Source of the DNA: an uncultured Nitrososphaerales archaeon
Lineage (GTDB): Archaea > Thermoproteota > Nitrososphaeria > Nitrososphaerales > Nitrososphaeraceae
Assembly: GCA_963695855.1 (NCBI GenBank)
Contig: CAVOHZ010000007.1
Coordinates: 1 to 10,052 of the forward strand
Length of the DNA: 10,052 bases
Direction: 5' to 3'
Positions 1 through 10,052 of the stretch are shown here, piece by piece. Position 1 is the stretch's first letter, and every line of letters starts with the position of its first letter. The notes beneath the pieces were generated by a model. That model worked only from the letters and a program-made list of their open reading frames with translations, was not told where the DNA came from and searched no databases. Both the position numbers and the translations under genes were made by a program.

Positions 1-42
1 TATTATTTATTAAATGTTATACATCTAGTACACATTTTTCTA

Positions 43-50
43 AATTTTGC
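43..50 (+). repeat. Target-site duplication AATTTTGC of the IS5 element (partner at 1069-1076)
   Basis: Exact 8-bp direct repeat abutting both terminal IRs. Confidence 0.88.
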
Positions 51-1068
51 TGCTCTGTTGCGTAACTCGTCTAGATAATCATCTATTTTTTGTTACTAAG
101 GTAAATTATGTAACCCTTATACTTTGAAACCAGTTATACAAAGACGCTTTCAGTATTATCTCCTTTATCATGTTCTCAAATCTTATAGCAGTAACATATT
201 CGCCAAACATTCTCTTAATACAGGAAAAGACAGTTTCTACAATCCATCTTTGTCCATAGTCTACACTATCCTTCCATTGTTGTAGATTGGTTTTCTGTGA
301 TTGTACGTTCTTGTTTCTCAAATAATGGTTTGTCTTTCTATACTTGGCATTCTTTCTTACCTTAATTGCTGGTTGAATTCCTTTAAATGATAGAAATTGA
401 AAATTCTTGTTACTGTCATAGGCACCATCCATAATGGCAGTTTCAACTACTTTGTTCTGTTTTATAGTTATATCACCCACTAATTTAGGTAATACTTTTC
501 CATCATGCACTTCTTCACTGGTTACATGTAATGATAGAATTCTCTTCTTTTTTATGTCAACTGCTATATGTATTTTGAGATAACCTCTTTTTACTTTCCA
601 TTTGTGCCTAATCCATTCTCCTCTGTTTGTAACTTTAACACCAGTAGAATCAATTACAATTACAAAATTATTATCATGTTGTAAAATGGATTTATCCTGA
701 TCATCATCATCTATTTTGATATCTAATCTGTTTATTCTTCTGCAAATCCCGCTATAATCTGGAATTGATGGTAACGTATTTGCAGCATGAGCTGGTACAA
801 TACCCTCAGTTTGTCTGTATGGTAAATGAAAATATGCTCTCACATATCCAAGTAGTTTGATGAATGAATCTGGGTATACAAATTTTCTACCTTCTTTGTA
901 TTCATTCATCTTCTCTAGTTCAGAATCCCAGTTATCTATAACATCAAAATCAAGTAATACCTCACCACGTTTAACAAGAGATTCATTGTACCTCTTCCAG
1001 TTCACATGTATTATGACTAGAATAGGTTAGCTAAATGTGTTAGGAATAGCGAGTTACGCAACAAAGCA
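51..1068 (-). mobile_element. IS5-family insertion sequence (ISH1-like subgroup), complete, 1018 bp
   Basis: Terminal inverted repeats TGCTCTGTTGCGTAACTCG (51-69) and CGAGTTACGCAACAAAGCA (1050-1068) match at 18/19. An 8-bp direct repeat AATTTTGC flanks it (43-50 and 1069-1076). One DDE transposase ORF inside. Confidence 0.93.
106..1005 (-). CDS. IS5-family DDE transposase, 299 aa, GTG start
   Basis: N-terminal NWxxYNxSLVxRG motif of IS903/ISH1-type transposases; DDE motifs IVIDSTG, MDGAYD and YGQRWIVETVFSCIK (Y-2-R-3-E-6-K); also KIHIAVD. ORF is intact and lies between the IRs. Confidence 0.95.
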   Translation of the reverse strand: MNWKRYNESLVKRGEVLLDFDVIDNWDSELEKMNEYKEGRKFVYPDSFIKLLGYVRAYFHLPYRQTEGIVPAHAANTLPSIPDYSGICRRINRLDIKIDDDDQDKSILQHDNNFVIVIDSTGVKVTNRGEWIRHKWKVKRGYLKIHIAVDIKKKRILSLHVTSEEVHDGKVLPKLVGDITIKQNKVVETAIMDGAYDSNKNFQFLSFKGIQPAIKVRKNAKYRKTNHYLRNKNVQSQKTNLQQWKDSVDYGQRWIVETVFSCIKRMFGEYVTAIRFENMIKEIILKASLYNWFQSIRVT

Positions 1069-1753
1069 AATTTTGCAATAACTGTGGGAATAAATTAAGA
1101 AATGATCTTTCACGTTCCGCAAATAGTAAGCACGTTTTAGATTAGCTATGGTACGAGATAACCATCATCTCATAGAAATAAGTTCGACTATTGACGGCTA
1201 CTGGAATTCAACTAACAAAAAACTTCAAAATTTGGGAGACGGATGACAAATAATTTGAACATATTGGCACTTTATTAAAGAAATTAGTGAATCATCGGTA
1301 GTTATTGTGAAAACTTTATTTTGATCTATGCTACTTTCTACTCATGAAAAATTACTGGACCATCTGTGATACTGACATACATGCAGTGAAAGAGCGATCT
1401 AGAGATATGTCAATCTATCAGATGGTTTCACACTATGAAATTCCGGGTAGAGAACGGGACGAAGACAATGGCAGTTTGTGACAATGCGATGACGTCGGGG
1501 AAGGTTATTTTGTTTATTATGGCGCGGCAGATTCAGCTTCGGTAGGCGAGACGAGTAGACATGGCTGCCTTTGATGTTATCCGCTTGCTGCAAGGCCTGC
1601 AAAGAAGCCCGCTTCCTACAATGAATTGGCCACCCTTCGTGGATGAGACCAGCGATCCTACCGATTATAAACAACGTAGTAGGATTGTGTCTATACGTAG
1701 GACCTTTTGTAAATCTGTATTCAGCAACGTAGACATTGCTTTACTCGATGTGG

Positions 1754-1763
1754 GTGAGGAGGA
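1754..1763 (+). promoter_or_regulatory. Shine-Dalgarno-like ribosome binding site GTGAGGAGGA
   Basis: Strong purine-rich motif 8 nt upstream of TTG 1772. Confidence 0.6.
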
Positions 1764-1771
1764 TAGGATTC

Positions 1772-3598
1772 TTGCCAAAATTTGAAGCGTACCATGGAAA
1801 AACCCGTCAATATCACCAAAGCCGTTTCGATGTGCTTTCGAAAAAATGGCGAATGATTTCCTTGAGTGTCCATGGAAGCCCATCAAGTCCGCTATATTCT
1901 GCAGTTTGGATAATGGAATCTGGACCAAGATATGTGGCCGTTAACGATCTGCCAATCAGCAAATATCAAAAATGGTACGATGATCAGTATGCCCTGGGCT
2001 ACAAACCTGCTCTAGTCTCTGCTACAGGAAGCCGTACCAATGCTGTGGTGGCAGCCGTTTTTGAGAAGAGGCCTAACAATGATTTTATTGCAAAACACGG
2101 ACTGGTCAATGGTGATGAAAGGGACAAAACTACGATAGAATTCTGGTGCAAGGAATCACAGCGTAACGGAATGGTACTGCGTTCAGGTTCAATTTACGGA
2201 TCTTCCTCACAGAGATTGTACATAGCTGTGTGGCATAAGCAACCAGAGGCACAATGGAATTGGCGCCTAGCTGAAGATGCGAATTGGCACCAGACTTGGT
2301 TCGATGCATTTCGCAAAGTACCACTTCGGCCAGGGTTTGTGACCCTTTCAGAACACCAAATTTATCTTTCCGCGTTTCGCAATGATCCAATTGGTACATG
2401 GCACGCCCACCATAAAATGACAAGTGACCAGTATCAGATTGAATTCGAGAAATACAAGAAGAATGGATACTATCCAATATGTGTTCAGGGTGGCGGTGTG
2501 GGTTCAAACACCCGATACGCAGCTATATTCGCAAAGACACATATCCCGCTGCTCCGCAAATGGACAGTACGTGGATCAGGACTTTCCAAATTTGACACTG
2601 CCATCAAGGAATTCATGTTGAAACATGCGATTAGGGCAGGCCAGCTAAGTATTGCAAAGAATGGCACATTCAAAGCAGAGCGCGCCTATACATGGGCCGA
2701 TGATGGATACCGGATTACTGAAACAAATTATCTAATGCGAATTGCGAGCTTAAGTAAGATGTTCACTCGCGCTTGTATTCAGAGGTTGTACGATGACGGA
2801 TCTGTTACACCCACCACTAGGGTCTTTCAGAGGCTTGGAATCACACAGAAAGCCTTGAACTCACAGACGGTCGATTCTCGCGTTAATGATATAGAAGTAG
2901 AACATCTAGTAGATCATAAGGGTGGATGGGATCGTGCTAAAGCAGGAGATTATGTTTTCAAGATGAGAAAAATAGCAAATGATCTAGGACTTAGCGGCCC
3001 TCCTACAAAGTTCGACATGGTGCGCTACATGTACGGAGAGCCAATACAGTACGATCCAGGTACTGTGGTCTCGCCTTTAGCCTACTCAAATATTGGCTAT
3101 ACAACGCTTGCTTATCTTATAGAAGTAGTCACAGGAAAGAGTTACGAAAATTATCTAAGGAATACCATTCTTAAACCGGATGGAATTACAGCAGTGCGAC
3201 TAGCACGAACATTGCAAAGTCAGAAATACGCCAATGAAGTTTCGTACGATGATCCCAATGTATGGTACTCTGCCGCCGAGCCTACAAAGGATAAACTTAC
3301 TGCCTTTTGCCATGGCGGAGAGGGATGGGTAACTGAGGCGATGGACGGTAGTGGTGGATTATGTGCCACAGCGTCTGCGCTTGTAGAGTTTATCCGTCTG
3401 CATGCGGTTTGGGGTCTTGGGGGAAGAGTAGTGAGTGCACGCACTGGAGGTATGGCAGGTGTAACCAGCCTGGCGGAATCCCGTTCTGATGGTGTAGATT
3501 TCGCATTTATCTTCAATTCTCGGCATAACATGCCCTATAAAACTGCAGATAATTTCGCAATAAAACTGAATGGCTTGCTGAACTCTGCTGTGTTATAA
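1772..3598 (+). CDS. Serine hydrolase of the beta-lactamase/transpeptidase fold with five N-terminal tandem repeats (BTRD1 / polyglycine-hydrolase-like), ~608 aa
   Basis: Catalytic motifs RIASLSKMF (SxxK), LVDHKGG, AYSNIGY (YxN) and RTGGMAG. N-terminal ~45-50 aa repeats begin FEAYHG, YVAVND, FIAKHG, WNWRLA, WHAHHK and end YSAVW, VAAVF, YIAVW, YLSAF, YAAIF. The ORF track starts at 1736; TTG at 1772 is preferred because GTGAGGAGGA (1754-1763) precedes it and repeat 1 starts right after. Confidence 0.9.
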   Translation: MPKFEAYHGKTRQYHQSRFDVLSKKWRMISLSVHGSPSSPLYSAVWIMESGPRYVAVNDLPISKYQKWYDDQYALGYKPALVSATGSRTNAVVAAVFEKRPNNDFIAKHGLVNGDERDKTTIEFWCKESQRNGMVLRSGSIYGSSSQRLYIAVWHKQPEAQWNWRLAEDANWHQTWFDAFRKVPLRPGFVTLSEHQIYLSAFRNDPIGTWHAHHKMTSDQYQIEFEKYKKNGYYPICVQGGGVGSNTRYAAIFAKTHIPLLRKWTVRGSGLSKFDTAIKEFMLKHAIRAGQLSIAKNGTFKAERAYTWADDGYRITETNYLMRIASLSKMFTRACIQRLYDDGSVTPTTRVFQRLGITQKALNSQTVDSRVNDIEVEHLVDHKGGWDRAKAGDYVFKMRKIANDLGLSGPPTKFDMVRYMYGEPIQYDPGTVVSPLAYSNIGYTTLAYLIEVVTGKSYENYLRNTILKPDGITAVRLARTLQSQKYANEVSYDDPNVWYSAAEPTKDKLTAFCHGGEGWVTEAMDGSGGLCATASALVEFIRLHAVWGLGGRVVSARTGGMAGVTSLAESRSDGVDFAFIFNSRHNMPYKTADNFAIKLNGLLNSAVL

Positions 3599-3870
3599 GC
3601 CATGTCCTGACCTGGATTTGAAACTTACATTATTCGCTGCTCCAATAGTGAATCTCCAGAATATCCCTATGCTTCCAGAATATGTGTATAAACTATCACA
3701 AAGAACAAGATCCATATAAAAAAAGTTCAAATCTTAACACAGATTATTAGCATTCAACCATACCTATCAAGTTATTATTACAAGACTCCTAAAGCGATTG
3801 AAAGAGTGAAACAACAACAATTCTACACCTGTAACGAGTGAAACATAAATTAATAATTAGTTAGTTTGAA

Positions 3871-4643
3871 TTGCATATCCTGACACCGGATAGAAAAGGC
3901 GTACATCTTTTGGAACAATTGCTTTATAATATATATGACAAGTCAGCAACGTTAAAAAATTTCAGATTAAAAGATATTCTATCCTATGGATATGATATTA
4001 AGTCACGCGGCGATGAAAAAATAGACTTGGATTATCAATATGACGCTATACATAGTCAACCAAAGAGCAATATAGATTATCTTATTTTCAAAATTTTAGA
4101 TGTGAAAAAAAAGAGGTACTTGATGAATTTGATAAATTTGAAAAGGAATTTTTCGAAAGGAGGATATTTATCACAAAATTTCTTTCAGGACTGCGTCAGT
4201 ATTATGAAGATGGGGATATCCTGAATAATGAACTGAACACTATATGGGAAAAAGGAATTATGTACTGTCATCTATTAATGCTTACAATGTTCAAGTCAGA
4301 AAAAGAAGATGAATTAATAGTATATTGAACGAATTTAATGCACGTATGCAAAAAAATTTCGACCAAATTAGAAAATTCGATTCTACACTAGGTAAAGGAA
4401 AAATTGAAATAAAATAATAAAAAGCATTTTAATAGGTTATTAATGTTTATGATTAGAAGTAAAACTTGAGAGTATTCCAACAAGAACGTTCTATCTATTA
4501 ATGGCATCATTCTGGAGTAGAAGTTAGAAAATATTGATATTGACCAACAAATAACTCCTGAAAAGAAAAATAGACAAGATTTCTTCTATTACCATAAGAT
4601 TTATTTGGTTATCGAAGCCATCGATTTGAGCATCCGCGAATAA
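3871..4643 (+). pseudogene. Fragmented gene of unknown function, charged and helical
   Basis: ORF 3871-4224 reads as protein up to the A8 run (4105-4112). The -1 frame then gives EVLDEFDKFEKEFFERRIFITKFLSGLRQYYEDGDILNNELNTIWEKG (stop 4326-4328). Further fragments INSILNEFNARMQKNFDQIRKFDSTLGKGKIEIK and ENIDIDQQITPEKKNRQDFFYYHKIYLVIEAIDLSIRE follow. No family recognised; the 3' boundary is uncertain. Confidence 0.45.
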
Positions 4644-4653
4644 TTCTATAAAA

Positions 4654-5166
4654 TTAATTTTTCTCTAACAGTTTGAATAATTTTTTCATTTCTCTTTCAT
4701 TATTGAAATCTATAGGTATAAAATTCAAAATCCTTATTTTTTTCTTTAATGCACTTATCAGAAAAACATCTGCTGAAAGAAAAGTGTTACACTCTGAAAG
4801 AAATGCTATAAAGATATGCAGAGCATCGGATGCATTTATCAAATTTATATCTTGGATTATAACTCGAGAGGCGATAATATGTTTTCTTCAATAGGATATA
4901 ATTCTAATTGATTTTGCCGTAGTTTTTCTTAGCAAATTTGTAATTGCATTTAAAATATGAAATGCTTCATTGTTCGTGATTCTTTTTTCAATAATTTTTC
5001 TTTCAATAACTGCGATACATTCATTTATTACCCAATCTGATATTACCAAAAGTACTTTATCGTTATTAGCAAGGTCTTCTAATTTTTGGGCAATATCGCT
5101 TCTGCTTTCATCTAAAAACAATTTTAAAAAAACGTTCGTATCAAGATATATTTTGTTTAATTTCAA
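4654..5166 (-). pseudogene. vapC: PIN-domain VapC-type toxin, interrupted
   Basis: PIN motifs IYLDTNVF, VISDWVINEC, ASDALHIFIA and FLSAD are split across ORFs 4888-5166 and 4654-4842, which share one frame with a single TGA at 4888-4890. Confidence 0.88.
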
Positions 5167-5186
5167 TTTTAAAATGTCAAATACTA

Positions 5187-5378
5187 CTACTTCTTTCTTT
5201 CTTCAATCCTTGTTTTAATAGAAGTATCCGATAATGAACCTGCTTTTTTTAAAATCATTTTTAACTTCTTTTCGTCAGTTTTGAAATTTTTTATTCCTAA
5301 ATCTTCTTTAAGTCCGTCAATATCCTTTAATGCCTCCTCTTTTGATAAGGGTTTCAATCCATTAGAACTATTAATCAT
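5187..5378 (-). CDS. Putative VapB-like antitoxin, 63 aa
   Basis: Small charged protein ending 20 nt upstream of the PIN gene on the same strand. C-terminal GSLSDTSIKTRIEER resembles the S-x-x-I-x-x-x-R-E-E-R tail of archaeal VapB antitoxins. Confidence 0.65.
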   Translation of the reverse strand: MINSSNGLKPLSKEEALKDIDGLKEDLGIKNFKTDEKKLKMILKKAGSLSDTSIKTRIEERKK

Positions 5379-5682
5379 CTTCTTTAATGATGTGGAAATG
5401 TGATAGAAGACATCGGAATAATTACTTGTTATAAGTGGCTGATAAACGTTATGTCATGTTATATGTAAATATAAAAATAGAAATCATGTATTCCATAATT
5501 AATGGTTTTAAGTCGTTCTACAACAACACGATTTCTACAGCCGAAATCCTAACAATCAAATTGAGAATTATCTTTAACACAGTGAATGAGATCCATTATT
5601 AGATTTTAATAAATCTCTTTTATAGAAATAATCATATTGCCAAATAAAGTTAATATATTATGTTACCGAACCCTGATATAAT

Positions 5683-5730
5683 GAGAGTTCGAAGCCCTCC
5701 GAGCCCGTATACTAGTAGGGTTCAATAACA
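5683..5730 (+). repeat. tRNA 3'-end remnant plus trailer (att-like site), copy 1
   Basis: GAGAG-TTCGAAG-CCCTC forms a T arm with one stem mismatch, then the acceptor 3' strand CGAGCCC and discriminator G (5707). No 5' tRNA half upstream. 5696-5730 matches 6971-7005 at 32/35. Confidence 0.8.
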
Positions 5731-5845
5731 TTTAACAAATTAATTTTATTTTTCTAAAGATTTGACTTCTATAATTGAGAGTTTAAGAACAAATATTTTC
5801 AACTCAAGAAATAACATTATTTCAAACTATTTTTTTAATTCTATT

Positions 5846-6034
5846 TTAAGATGGAATTAATCCTATTTTCGGATCATTATGAAATGCACAAAAATTAGCA
5901 TAACTAGGGTATTTTTCATGACATAGTGGACAATATTTTTTAGTTTCAGTTAATATATTTTCCCAGTCAAATTCTTCGCCACAACAGAGACAATTATTTC
6001 TTACAAAGATATTTTCTGAAGCAGCAGTTACCAA
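5846..6034 (-). CDS. Small double zinc-ribbon-like protein or 3' remnant of a larger gene
   Basis: CLCC, CPLC and CAFH motifs, with a KYCPLC...ANFC pattern typical of zinc-ribbon domains. Weak TTG start, so it may be truncated. Confidence 0.5.
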   Translation of the reverse strand: MVTAASENIFVRNNCLCCGEEFDWENILTETKKYCPLCHEKYPSYANFCAFHNDPKIGLIPS

Positions 6035-6094
6035 TCTTGAAAAGCTTCAAGCTCTAGGCTTAGAATTTGATTTAGTATATTCAAGTACTCCAAC

Positions 6095-6652
6095 CTATTT
6101 GGTAGATTCTATCCCCTTTTTGAAAAGGTTATACTGTCTGAGTAATCGCCTATTCAATCCTATTACTATGCCTCCGCTGATAATTAGAGAAATATTAGTT
6201 ACTAATATCGCTATCAAAATAATTGGAGTATCATTCACTAGCTGGGCATACTCTTCTACGTGTCTATAGAACGAGGCTGATCCAAGGAATATAATAGAAA
6301 CAGAAATGCGCAAAACCAGCGAAGTAATGAAGACAATTTGAATATATAATCCACCTTTTGAATAAATAGAGCCGTCAGATCCTCTCCAAAACGAAATTTT
6401 TACATAATGGTATGTAAGAAATTCAGCACCTATAAATATAATTATAAAGACAGGGAGAAATAAGACTGGAATGCCAATAAGGAAAGAGTTTAAAATAAAG
6501 TAAGAAACAAATATTGAAAAAACGATGGAAATCGCTATCAATACAGTCCTGTTCACCTTTGATCCCTCATGCGCCTTTCTTATCTTTAATATAGCAACTA
6601 AAGCGGTAACTATTATTGGAATCAAAGTAATCAAGTCAAAAGAACTGGACAT
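6095..6652 (-). CDS. Integral membrane protein, DUF1453/CcdC-like, 185 aa
   Basis: About five hydrophobic segments. The loop KISFWRGSDGSIYSKGG followed by a helix ending LVLRI resembles DUF1453/CcdC proteins. Family assigned by motif recall only. Confidence 0.65.
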   Translation of the reverse strand: MSSSFDLITLIPIIVTALVAILKIRKAHEGSKVNRTVLIAISIVFSIFVSYFILNSFLIGIPVLFLPVFIIIFIGAEFLTYHYVKISFWRGSDGSIYSKGGLYIQIVFITSLVLRISVSIIFLGSASFYRHVEEYAQLVNDTPIILIAILVTNISLIISGGIVIGLNRRLLRQYNLFKKGIESTK

Positions 6653-6960
6653 CTAATGAAAAAAGTGAACTAGAATTATAAAAAGTCTATTTTACAGATA
6701 TCCATTTGTCAAAATATTGTAATAGGATCTATTAAAATTTTAAGGTTGATATGATTCTAGTAAATAAATTAGGATTTAATGAATCGACAAAATTTTTGTT
6801 CTAAAAATTTTTTATTTAATTTCTAAAAACTTTCTGTTTGTTCAAATAAATAGTTCATTATTTCTAAAGAAATAAAAGGTATAGATTTGCTTCATTTCTT
6901 AAACTCAAGTTTCTATTTGATATTTTATTTTTATCTGAACTACAAAATTGTGTCAAAATC

Positions 6961-7005
6961 AGTTCACACACCTCCGAGCCCGTATACTGGCAGGATTCAA
7001 TAACA
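6961..7005 (+). repeat. tRNA 3'-end remnant plus trailer (att-like site), copy 2
   Basis: AGTTCACACACCTCCGAGCCCGTATACTGGCAGGATTCAATAACA matches 5686-5730 at 38/45, including an exact 18-mer CCTCCGAGCCCGTATACT. Confidence 0.8.
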
Positions 7006-7103
7006 GTTTCTAGTTTAATTCAAAAATAAATGTGAATATTAGAAAACTTACTATTGAAATTTGAAAAAGTAGATATTAAATAATTTGATAAACTAAAGGC
7101 AGT

Positions 7104-7334
7104 ATGAATTCAATAGTAATTACATCTTTTATTGCATTTGCTATAATTTCCGTAATGCTAACAGTATTTGAAAATGTGTTTGGACAAGGAGAGGAGGCAG
7201 AGCAAAGACAGGATCAATCACCACCAACATTAGATGATAATAACAATGGAAGAATTATTAGTGAAGAAATTTGTCCGCCATATTGCAGCCCACCTCCTCC
7301 GATACAAGAGTTACCACAAGAGCAACCACCATAA
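7104..7334 (+). CDS. Small secreted or membrane-anchored acidic, Pro-rich hypothetical protein, 76 aa
   Basis: Hydrophobic N-terminus ending VFG-Q (signal-peptide-like), acidic linker, CPPYC motif and Pro/Gln-rich tail. Clearly less AT-rich than its flanks. Confidence 0.7.
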   Translation: MNSIVITSFIAFAIISVMLTVFENVFGQGEEAEQRQDQSPPTLDDNNNGRIISEEICPPYCSPPPPIQELPQEQPP

Positions 7335-7646
7335 TTTTATTTGCACTTTCCGTATGTTATAATTTCAAGTATCTCTCTTGTTTGTAATAGATTCTAATAT
7401 TAGAAATAGTAAAATATATTTTATTTCATTTCATTTACGTTTTTAAAATTAGATAAATTTTATAATTATATTAGATATTATATTTTTAGCATTAAATATT
7501 GACTTTAATTTTCTGATTGAAAGATATGATGAATATAATAAATAAATACATAAAATTATAATAACATTATTGACATTTCATCCATCTCAATGATATATTA
7601 TTTTATTTAATAAAGATACAATAATCAGAATGTCTCTTAAATTGAT

Positions 7647-8861
7647 ATGTATAAGAATTTTGAAAATAATAATAAACAATTTAAATCAAAATTAGTTGAA
7701 CATCTAAATGAAACATTATTTATTGAAAATGAATCAATAGGTAGAATAAAATCAAGAATAGAACAGACACCGATTCTAGAAGTAAAACAAAGACTACTTC
7801 AACATTTAGAAGAAACATATAAGCAAAAAAACAGACTAGAGCAAATAATTGTAAAATTATCATCAGAAAAATCTAATAAACATAAAGCAAATTTGTTACC
7901 ATTAACACCTGATTCTTCTAGTATAATAAGAACGAATCTTAAAAATTCAATAAAATCATTACCAAGTAATGATGAAGGTTTCAATCAAAGATTTAAATCT
8001 CTTCCAGAAGAAACTGAATTAACAAGAATTAAGGAAGACTATATAATAGAATATGATGAGGTAGTTACCTATCATAAATTGATACATATTGCAGAAATGA
8101 CAGATTTACCACAACCCAATGATATTATATCTTTACTAAAAGAAAGTATGCAGGAAGAAGAATCAATGGCAAACTGGTATCAAGTACATGTGTCAGTGAT
8201 ACTTGAAAACCTATGGCCAAAGCTGATAAATTCTCCCATAAAGCGAGCTCAAGAATTTCTTCTCAATTATGCGGGTTCTAAAATGCCACTTATTATAATG
8301 TATGCGGATCTGGTTGGATCGACTAATTTGAGTATGACTTTATCCGTAGAAATTCTTATTGCATTAATAAGAGCATTTACTCATGAACTATCAAATGTTG
8401 TAGAAAGATATAATGGTTATGTTCTAAAATATGTAGGAGATGCAGTAATTTCTTTTTTTCCTTATGCCATAGACAACAAATATCAGGTATGCAAGAATTC
8501 AATTGAGTGTGCAAAGTCAATTATAGATGTAATCAATACAGAGATTAATGTAATTTTACATAAAAAATATGGTTATCCAGAATTATTTGTAAAAATAGGT
8601 ATAGATGAAGGAGAAAATGTTGTAATTCAATATGGATATGAAAGAAACTCACTAATTGATATATTAGGATACAGTATGAATGTTGCAGCAAAGATAACTT
8701 CTCTAACCACTGCGAATAGTATATCCATCGGGGAAAATGTGTATCATTTATTGGATCATATCCAACAATCAGAATTTCAAGAGTTGAAAATATCTATCAA
8801 CAATTGGAAATATATCAATCGTGATACGAAAGAACCTTATAGAATTTACAAGATAAAGTAA
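7647..8861 (+). CDS. Fusion of a ferritin-like DUF892/YciF domain and a class III adenylate cyclase, 404 aa
   Basis: N-half has ferritin-like four-helix motifs LNETLFIENES, HLEETYKQKNRLEQI, IIEYDEVVTY and MQEEESMANW. C-half has cyclase motifs MYADLVGST, LKYVGDAV, KIGID and DILGYSMNVAAK. Confidence 0.9.
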   Translation: MYKNFENNNKQFKSKLVEHLNETLFIENESIGRIKSRIEQTPILEVKQRLLQHLEETYKQKNRLEQIIVKLSSEKSNKHKANLLPLTPDSSSIIRTNLKNSIKSLPSNDEGFNQRFKSLPEETELTRIKEDYIIEYDEVVTYHKLIHIAEMTDLPQPNDIISLLKESMQEEESMANWYQVHVSVILENLWPKLINSPIKRAQEFLLNYAGSKMPLIIMYADLVGSTNLSMTLSVEILIALIRAFTHELSNVVERYNGYVLKYVGDAVISFFPYAIDNKYQVCKNSIECAKSIIDVINTEINVILHKKYGYPELFVKIGIDEGENVVIQYGYERNSLIDILGYSMNVAAKITSLTTANSISIGENVYHLLDHIQQSEFQELKISINNWKYINRDTKEPYRIYKIK

Positions 8862-9065
8862 ATTTTTATCTGATTTAATGTCTGTTCTTTTCCAAGCATT
8901 TCAATTTTATACTCATAGCACTCTTTTATTACAGCATTGCCGTATAGTAGAAATTAGAATTTTTATATTGAACTCTAAAGAATGGTGTTATAGAACATAA
9001 TATTATATGAATAAGAATTTGCATTCTAATATTTTAATAAAAATAAAACTTATATAAAAATATAA

Positions 9066-9081
9066 CATACCTTATACCTTA
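9066..9081 (+). repeat. 16-bp direct repeat CATACCTTATACCTTA flanking the IS481 element (partner at 10032-10047)
   Basis: Exact match abutting both IRs; contains two tandem TACCTTA units. Confidence 0.9.
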
Positions 9082-10031
9082 TGTATTATCCCACCACATG
9101 TGTTACACTCCTATTATACACTTGTACTGGTGTCATGTAGTTCAATGACATATGTACTCTTTTATTATTGTAATATTTAATGAATTGCTCATGTCTTTTG
9201 AATCTAGGTCGCTCTACATCATATGTACGATGCCATCTTTCTATTTTACCAAGTGTGGTAGGTTTTCCTATACCACCCATAACATGTTGTATGTCATATT
9301 CTTTGCAGAAAGAATCAAAATCTGACTGTAATTTAGAATGTGAATTATAGAATTGTGAACCATGGTCTGTCAGTATCTGTAATGGTTTTCCATATTTTCT
9401 GATTGTACGCTTCAATAGATAAATAATCTTATCTGATGTACCTTCTACACATTTGATAGATGATAACACATATCTGGTGTGATCATCAAAAATAGATATC
9501 AGCCAAATTCCTTCATTTTCTATAACTTTCAGGTCAATCTGCCACAATTCATTTGGAAATTTACGCTCAAATTGTATGTATTTTCTCTTCTTTCTGGGTT
9601 TGTTGATAGGATTGTTGTTCAATCCGCTTTTGCATAAAATTCTGTATACTGTCATATGTCCTACCTTTATGTTGTATTGGTTCGCAAGAGTTCCTTGTAT
9701 CTTGTGTGGACAGTAATGGTATTTCTTTCTTAACTGTACTACCTTCTGTTCTATCTTTTTATCTGTTCTATGAATTGTATGTGGGTCTTTTAGAATGATC
9801 TTTTAGTCCATTTAATCCCTCTTTCTTGTACCTGTTCCAGTATCTGTAGAAACTCATTCTGGATATGTGTATATGTTTACAGATGTCAGTTACTTTCCAT
9901 CCTCCTTCCAGTTTACGTCTTATACACCATCTTCTTATCTTTTCTAGATCTTGTTTATACTGCATCTAGTGTAACAACACTCCTTACTCTTACCAAGTAA
10001 AAGAGTGTAACAGATGTCATGGGATAATACA
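9082..10031 (-). mobile_element. IS481-family insertion sequence, 950 bp, both ends present
   Basis: 5'-TGT...ACA-3' ends; 29-bp terminal IRs at 9082-9110 and 10003-10031 match at 26/29; flanked by a 16-bp direct repeat. Confidence 0.92.
9086..9965 (-). pseudogene. IS481-family transposase (HTH plus rve integrase core) with a +1 frameshift
   Basis: HTH fragment (ISRMSFYRYWNRYKKEGLNGLKDHSKRP) and DDE core (PNELWQIDLK, FDDHTR, ILTDHGSQF, TLGKIERWHRT, YYNNKRVHMSL). Removing one base from the GGG at 9783-9785 joins them through PHTIHRTDKKIEQKVVQLRKKYHYCPHKI into 292 aa. The stop lies within the IR. Confidence 0.92.
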
Positions 10032-10052
10032 CATACCTTATACCTTAAAGAA

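Follow-up and report, generated by a model that had tools for sequence, protein, structure and literature searches.

Class III nucleotidyl cyclases are modular enzymes that need to form a dimer, and in this family a new input domain shows which signal becomes cAMP. CyaC of Spirulina (1wc1) and CyaB of Pseudomonas aeruginosa (3r5g), which resemble the catalytic half of the protein described here, carry other input domains. Ammonia-oxidising archaea, which drive soil nitrification, are sensitive to peroxide and handle NO, and to our knowledge neither a signal nor a target is known for any of their cyclases. Comparative genomics has noted additional class III cyclase copies, without describing their domains, for Nitrososphaeraceae together with Ca. 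Nitrosocosmicus (PMC13577086) and for the Thaumarchaeota of sponges (PMC9289680).

The enterobacterial proteins YciF and YciE belong to the DUF892 family (PF05974), have a four-helix ferritin-like fold and are stand-alone chains of about 166-173 residues (solved DUF892 structures include 2gs4, 4eru, 3ogh, 2gyq and 3hiu). In a preprint on Salmonella YciF, the only functional study that our searches found, both iron binding and ferroxidase activity are reported; the substitutions Q54A and E113Q reduced both, E143D at the bridging ligand led to loss of ferroxidase activity, and the Tm was unchanged with EDTA (bioRxiv 10.1101/2023.01.20.524870). The same preprint describes YciF as an iron-sequestering ferroxidase and not as a sensor. 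The principle of a metal-binding bundle fused to a nucleotide cyclase is found in Bhr-DGC of Vibrio cholerae, in which, according to a review, a four-helix non-haem diiron hemerythrin domain regulates a diguanylate cyclase (PMC9388753), a precedent for the logic discussed below. However, neither half of Bhr-DGC is homologous to the protein described here. Its sensor is a hemerythrin with a His-rich site, its GGDEF output produces c-di-GMP and it is bacterial; it is an analogue in logic only.

The gene reported here encodes a soluble, cytoplasmic DUF892-class III cyclase fusion of soil ammonia-oxidising archaea of the family Nitrososphaeraceae. The window, by which we mean the whole stretch of DNA that was analysed (10,052 nucleotides), is the entire contig C7 of a genome of 3.55 Mb in 11 contigs. 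The fusion gene lies at 7647..8861 (+), starts with ATG, has 404 codons without internal stops and ends with a stop codon at 8859-8861. A single ORF over this region had been proposed in the first-pass annotation of the sequence, and both the ORF list and the translation bear this out; the translation contains the motifs ADLVGST, LKYVGD, GDA, DILG, NVAAK, HLEETYKQ, EYDE and QEEES. Pfam searches placed PF05974 (DUF892) in two stretches of the N-terminal half, the best at aa 15-80 (E 6.4e-10, 39.7 bits against a cut-off of 23.7), and PF00211 (Guanylate_cyc) at aa 215-380 (E 1e-12, 48.5 bits against a cut-off of 21.9). No membrane segment was found, in agreement with the annotation: the highest 19-residue Kyte-Doolittle mean was 1.56, at aa 223-241, within the cyclase fold. 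A reading as a membrane sensor was ruled out, as a hydrophobic segment is absent outside the cyclase core. Rfam and tRNA scans detected no Rfam families and no tRNAs in the window.

A full-length AlphaFold2 model, built on an alignment of 120 sequences, had a mean pLDDT of 79 and showed helices at aa 2-40, 44-72, 120-151 and 157-206, with an alpha/beta domain from aa 215. The four helices form the DUF892 ferritin-like bundle (aa 12-193; 7680..8225, +). When the N-terminal 205 residues were modelled alone, together with 21 stand-alone relatives, the mean pLDDT was 85.5, and the 11 best Foldseek matches in the PDB were exclusively solved DUF892 proteins (target TM 0.73-0.83), including 3hiu, 2gyq, 3ogh (YciE), 4eru and 2gs4 (YciF) and 7tmv; bacterioferritins and Dps were the next matches. 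Thus the N-terminal half is ferritin-like as proposed, with Pfam above its cut-off and DUF892 structures as the best fold matches. Between helices 2 and 3 lies a low-confidence loop (aa 73-119; 7863..8003, +), which is poorly conserved and varies in length among relatives. In the full model the pLDDT stayed below 50 over aa 75-115; when the N-domain was modelled alone, the loop reached about 52-62. With the whole model, the top PDB matches were CyaC (1wc1; E 1.5e-9, target TM 0.80) and CyaB (3r5g; target TM 0.77). Together with the PF00211 match these fold matches confirm the class III nucleotidyl cyclase catalytic domain in the C-terminal half (aa 215-404; 8289..8858, +). The two domains are joined by a linker (aa 194-214; 8226..8288, +) that consists of the end of helix 4 and a short turn, and marks the fusion junction as given by the limits of the paralogue matches. 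In both models helix 4 runs unbroken to aa 204-206 and is followed by the first cyclase strand at aa 215. A homodimer prediction with two copies scored 0.10 against a mark of 0.42, which speaks neither for nor against dimerisation.

Compared with YciF and YciE, the N-terminal domain shares the HLEET, E-x-x-E and EE motifs. In the fusion protein, however, a loop of 47 residues is inserted, helix 4 is followed by an LWP motif and an enzyme domain is attached, and the identity of its N-domain to solved DUF892 proteins is only 15-21%. Putative di-metal ligands were located by conservation and by alignment to YciF; they are E27, E56, Q60, E135, E138, E170 and E171 (spanning 7725..8162, +). E27, Q60, E138, E170 and E171 are invariant in the 120 matches listed from our protein search, of which 116 share E56 and 117 share E135. 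In a HMMER alignment to the YciF chain 4eru, which is weak (E 0.04), Q60, E138 and E171 lie opposite Q54, E113 and E143, the three ligands probed by mutagenesis; this mapping assumes an inferred offset of +3 between the numbering of the paper and that of the chain, the only offset that gives Gln, Glu and Glu throughout. The counterparts of all three tested iron ligands are therefore invariant in the listed fusion proteins. There are six His residues within aa 1-205, the conserved core residues are carboxylates, and no hemerythrin family, as in the diiron sensors Bhr-DGC and DcrH, was among the Pfam matches at E up to 0.1.

The earlier annotation had suggested that usual His ligands are replaced and that the metal site may be altered. 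This was mostly not borne out, given that Q60, E138 and E171 are invariant. The residues in question are variable positions, and the core of the putative metal site is intact. At position 58, which is not among the three YciF ligands probed by mutagenesis, the 120 listed matches have His (108), Tyr (9), Gln (2) or Arg (1), and solved DUF892 proteins have His or Gln. The Tyr58 of our protein (codon TAT, 7818..7820, +) is nearly private to the lineage of this genome, most relatives having His; a metagenome DNA contig of 95-99% identity (run X1) has a C at 7818, which gives CAT and thus His. The Tyr of the EYDE motif is likewise variable: of the 120, 63 have His there, 55 Tyr and 2 Phe. A disruption of the metal site by Tyr58 or by the E-Y-D-E motif was ruled out as the main reading, since the counterparts of the YciF ligands are invariant.

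In the cyclase half, D221, K261, D265, D338 and N345 are invariant in the 120 matches listed. CyaB 3r5g (E 2.1e-11) and CyaC 1wc1 (E 4.3e-10) were the best PDB sequence matches with HMMER, and in the alignment to these proteins D221 and D265 correspond to the metal Asp pair, K261 to the substrate Lys, D338 to the second substrate position (Thr in CyaC) and N345 to the ribose-contacting Asn. The roles of these positions, including that of the Lys/Asp pair as substrate-defining, we take to be those familiar from the cyclase family. Both metal-binding Asp residues and the ATP-type Lys/Asp pair are present, as had been noted from the sequence. The further claim that all catalytic residues are present, with the last motif written as N-x-x-x-R/K, stands for the Asp pair, the Lys/Asp pair and the Asn, but not for the transition-state Arg. 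At this position all 120 listed matches, in contrast to CyaC and CyaB, carry a Lys (Lys349; codon at 8691..8693, +), so that the motif reads N345-x-x-x-K349 and only the Asn of the transition-state Asn...Arg pair is found. In addition, the strand that is usually of the Arg-Ile-Gly-Ile-His type is VKIGIDEG here (K316, D320), and Ser225 replaces the usual Phe of the D-x-x-G-F-T motif.

The placement of the domain among class III cyclases holds by profile and by fold despite Lys349. The genome contains 24 Pfam cyclase matches at 22 loci, and the same Lys is found in 16 of the 22 paralogues; the canonical Arg is found in the other six, four of which have the usual K...T...N...R pattern. The exchange of Arg for Lys is conservative and retains the charge. 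As the Lys occurs in every listed member, catalytic competence is not assured; nevertheless, with the charge kept and the Lys variant preserved across a large and old clade, we consider it fairly likely that the Lys349 variant is an active cyclase.

We then looked at how widely the architecture occurs. A search over 5.8 billion proteins returned 2542 matches. The 120 matches listed are 55-96% identical at 96-100% coverage, and every one carries both PF05974 and PF00211, which goes far past what chance would produce. Relatives with a name belong to the archaeal Nitrososphaeraceae or Nitrososphaerales, among them 'Candidatus Nitrosocosmicus sp.' as well as 'Nitrososphaerales archaeon TH1177'. 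The host itself belongs to the Nitrososphaeraceae, which agrees with the archaeal host proposed beforehand. One match (P0099) is labelled 'Phototrophicaceae bacterium'; it lies on a 2.8-kb contig of a metagenome bin and was taken as a binning error, the other named relatives being Nitrososphaerota. Two ESM Atlas clusters with both domains (76 and 153 members) are 91-94% archaeal, with Nitrososphaerota as the commonest phylum.

Among sampled genomes of the family, the fusion is present as an open frame with both domains in 26 of 201, distributed over seven of 18 genera, with 47-98% identity. It is therefore not peculiar to this assembly, which had been one concern about the gene. In its own genus it was found in 4 of 25 genomes, in genus g2 in 9 of 34 (a further copy there has two TGA stops), in g3 in 1 of 7, in g9 in 5 of 14, in g12 in 1 of 10 (the unpublished genome G077), in g13 in 1 of 5 and in g17 in 5 of 7. 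Relatives with in-frame stops occur in G032 and on contig C15 of G111. With only 4 of 25 genomes of its own genus carrying it, the gene is dispensable; the fusion is kept by selection. Of 401 genomes sampled from the whole phylum, 60 contain a match to the cyclase half (E up to 1e-20), namely the genome of the window and, in the three families of its order, 2 of 2, 56 of 56 and 1 of 1 genomes; the other families sampled gave no match. No two-domain match was found outside the family of the window among these 401 genomes. Among the genomes sampled, the fusion is thus confined to a part of the Nitrososphaeraceae.

Both halves have separate relatives in the family. Paralogues that have the cyclase alone, in ORFs of about 260-310 aa, align with the fusion from aa 194-195 onward with 55-65% identity and are present in 192 of the 201 family genomes at E up to 1e-40. 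They share the clade, the linker and the Lys at the Arg site with the fusion; however, these paralogues, and those with a receiver, are without DUF892 and have instead a disordered N-terminus or a C-terminal response-regulator receiver. In the two cyclase-only paralogues of this genome, a disordered N-terminus is followed by the same S-I-K-R-G-Q-x-F-L-L-N-H linker. Of the 201 family genomes, 111 encode stand-alone DUF892 proteins with 35-50% identity to aa 1-205, with up to 12 matches per genome, and the N-domain derives from this DUF892 subfamily, which is expanded in Nitrososphaeraceae. In the present genome, the only DUF892 matches are the fusion and its identical copy. The LWP motif at the end of the bundle (aa 189-191) is common to the fusion and its stand-alone DUF892 relatives. 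Since the paralogues match from aa 194-195 and the LWP is shared, the junction lies at about aa 193-196. Some stand-alone members of the archaeal DUF892 family have a C2H2-like zinc finger at their C-terminal end.

A maximum-likelihood tree of 52 cyclase domains was calculated, from which L038, L042, L045, L049 and L080 were left out (frames of less than 250 aa). All fusion proteins form one clade of 16 rows with a support of 100/99, including L046 and L047, both of which carry DUF892 sequence. This single clade is nested among the cyclase-only paralogues of the family, which we read as one fusion event inside the Nitrososphaeraceae, followed by patchy retention.

Literature searches on DUF892, on YciF/YciE and on class III and archaeal (ammonia-oxidiser) cyclases yielded no paper on the DUF892-cyclase architecture. 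The statement of the first-pass annotation that it knew of no characterised cyclase with this input domain thus agrees with the literature searched. Automatic names do exist for some relatives, namely 'class 3 adenylate cyclase/ferritin-like metal-binding protein YciE' at JGI and 'DUF892 family protein' at NCBI. The architecture is therefore unstudied rather than unseen and, as far as our searches show, its input domain is one not previously described for the modular class III cyclases. The small soluble protein offers an easy entry point to a possible link between archaeal cAMP and iron or oxidant stress, to the question whether the Lys-for-Arg cyclase clade is active and to the role of DUF892 outside Enterobacteria.

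The reading that we tentatively favour is that of a soluble enzyme which makes cAMP under the control of a di-metal site responsive to iron, O2, peroxide or NO. The N-terminal bundle retains the carboxylates and the Gln that bind two irons in Salmonella YciF, and the trigger would be either the supply of Fe(II) or oxidation by O2, H2O2 or NO. A change in the occupancy or oxidation state of the site may then shift helix 4. E171, the counterpart of the bridging ligand, is located on this helix, which is predicted to run about 35 residues further to the first cyclase strand; as the helix is continuous into the cyclase, a change at the metal could pass on as a helix displacement. Such a displacement might alter the alignment of the two catalytic domains in the presumed dimer and in this way change the rate of cAMP synthesis. 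The logic is that of other helix-coupled cyclases. Two cNMP_binding matches above the cut-off were found in the genome, which makes these proteins candidate receivers for cAMP, and the signal could possibly be read by them. We regard it as doubtful that the DUF892 bundle truly senses a gas or the redox state with a di-iron site and switches cAMP synthesis in response to O2, H2O2 or the nitrification intermediate NO. If it were true, this would be the first case of a class III cyclase with a ferritin-like input and would give the first defined signal for archaeal cAMP signalling, with a hint that sensing, not iron storage, is a native role of the expanded archaeal DUF892 family.

The bundle might instead be a constitutive dimerisation or stability scaffold, or bind a ligand other than a metal, in which case there would be no iron or redox sensing and any regulation would act by expression. 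The solved DUF892 entries have two to four chains of the same sequence, which fits with a scaffold for enzymes that act as dimers. In addition, all that precedes the catalytic core of the closest cyclase-only paralogues is a disordered N-terminus and the same linker, suggesting that the core works with little N-terminal input, and neither the 47-residue loop nor His58 is strictly conserved. We nevertheless consider this rather unlikely, as a scaffold would not need invariant, buried E27, Q60, E138, E170 and E171 at YciF ligand positions in 120 of 120 listed matches. It is also conceivable, but unlikely, that the cyclase-like domain is weak, makes a product other than cAMP or serves as a nucleotide-binding regulatory module, so that the main job of the protein would be iron oxidation or detoxification by the DUF892 half. 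The Lys349 in place of the transition-state Arg, the VKIGIDEG strand (K316, D320), the Ser225 in place of Phe and the ferroxidase activity of YciF would all be in line with such a role. However, the metal Asp pair, the Lys/Asp pair and the Asn do not vary, 16 of the 22 paralogues have the same charge-retaining Lys, and all 59 genomes sampled from the three families of the order contain the clade, which is more easily explained by a working enzyme than by a decayed one.

A further alternative to the metal-gated cAMP synthase concerns only the genome analysed here, in which the gene might be on its way out, as a recently duplicated, IS-flanked His58Tyr copy that has lost sensing. A search of the genome with its own DNA showed that the 4.4-kb segment with the gene (5650..10052) occurs a second time, at C10:1151998-1156400, with 100% identity, and the segment is bordered by a broken IS481-family transposase. 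Tyr58 differs from the His of 108 of the 120 listed relatives and of the near-identical environmental contig, and relatives with in-frame stops exist (G111 C15 and G032). However, the frame is intact and all other conserved residues are kept. Tyr58 is shared with eight other listed family members, and the Gln or His of solved DUF892 proteins indicates that the site tolerates change. Moreover, the second copy of the gene is either a very recent duplicate or an assembly duplicate. We therefore regard a loss of the gene in progress as very improbable.

The gene is flanked by mobile elements. An IS5-family transposase lies at 106-1005; among the matches listed, its DNA recurs at about 35 further sites of the genome. 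The split IS481-family transposase lies at 9086-9965. In 10 relatives scanned, the neighbours vary by genus and include isochorismatase, DUF308, Usp, Rieske, patatin-like and DUF488 proteins. Conservation is only local, with DUF308 upstream in two genomes of one genus and isochorismatase nearby in the genus of the window. Neither an operon partner nor a conserved neighbour tied to iron or redox biology was found among these 10 relatives.

RNA contigs that are 95-99% alike to the gene were found in three metatranscriptome runs from three studies and cover 7933-8470, 8287-8818 and 8493-8790. They give a weak hint of expression, as RNA libraries can contain DNA. The stretch 7642-7926 is without RNA contigs, which carries no meaning. 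Half or more of the sampled words were contained in 14 listed sequencing runs.

The genome that carries the fusion gene shows a large expansion of class III cyclases. A total of 24 PF00211 matches was found, corresponding to 22 cyclase loci after two duplicated contigs were collapsed. The position of the transition-state arginine, which is Lys349 in the fusion protein, is occupied by lysine in 16 of the 22 loci and by glutamate in two, and the canonical K...T...N...R combination is present in four. In at least one group of these cyclases (L008:1543-2622), the cyclase is joined to a C-terminal response-regulator receiver domain.

Some Nitrososphaeraceae show a strong expansion of DUF892 paralogues that stand alone, with 12 matches in genome G038 and nine in G014. 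In the genome studied here no stand-alone DUF892 paralogue was found, and DUF892 is limited to the fusion. Among the stand-alone relatives of the N-domain, the metagenome proteins P0142, P0145 and P0275 (228-231 aa) share a C-terminal tail of the form C-x2-C-x12-H-x4-H, which matches C2H2 zinc-finger profiles below the cut-off (E 0.0006-0.1). If this zinc-finger tail is real, the archaeal DUF892 module would be linked to outputs of at least two kinds. In the relative P0079 (495 aa), which comes from one metagenome contig of 1989 nt, DUF892 and cyclase are preceded in frame by a nitrogen-regulator domain of the P-II type (PF00543, E 3.9e-18). P0079 is either a three-domain fusion or two neighbouring genes read as one.

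Full or partial copies of the fusion gene with in-frame stops were found in three genomes, namely G111 (C15:137449-138642, one TAA), G032 (C1:371937-372752, two TGA) and G108 (C202:773-1672, one TGA and two TAG). The fusion gene is in decay in some lineages.

The window represents contig C7 (10 kb) in its entirety, positions 1-10052. When the DNA was searched against its own genome, the right 4.4 kb (5650-10052) was 100% identical to C10:1151998-1156400, and the left 5.6 kb was not found adjoining this copy in C10. A repeat of about 440 bp lies at the junction (5269-5708) and is 86% identical to C10:1217383-1217825. The 4.4-kb segment reflects one of two things, a recent segmental duplication linked to an IS or an alternative path taken in the assembly. 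An IS481-family transposase on the reverse strand at 9086-9965 is split into two ORFs, the HTH part (9768-9965) and the integrase core (9086-9655), and a 100% identical copy is located at C10:1732297-1733255.

An IS5-family transposase (106-1005, reverse strand, E 4.3e-84) is encoded by DNA that, among the matches listed, recurs at about 35 further sites of the genome with 68-99% identity. The transposase adjoins an island of 45% G+C, compared to 27-32% in the flanks, around a forward-strand ORF of 620 aa (1736-3598). Its product combines three repeats of the BTRD1 'polyglycine hydrolase-like' type (E 5e-41) with a beta-lactamase/transpeptidase-like domain (E 3.8e-27), and the ORF looks like a horizontal acquisition.
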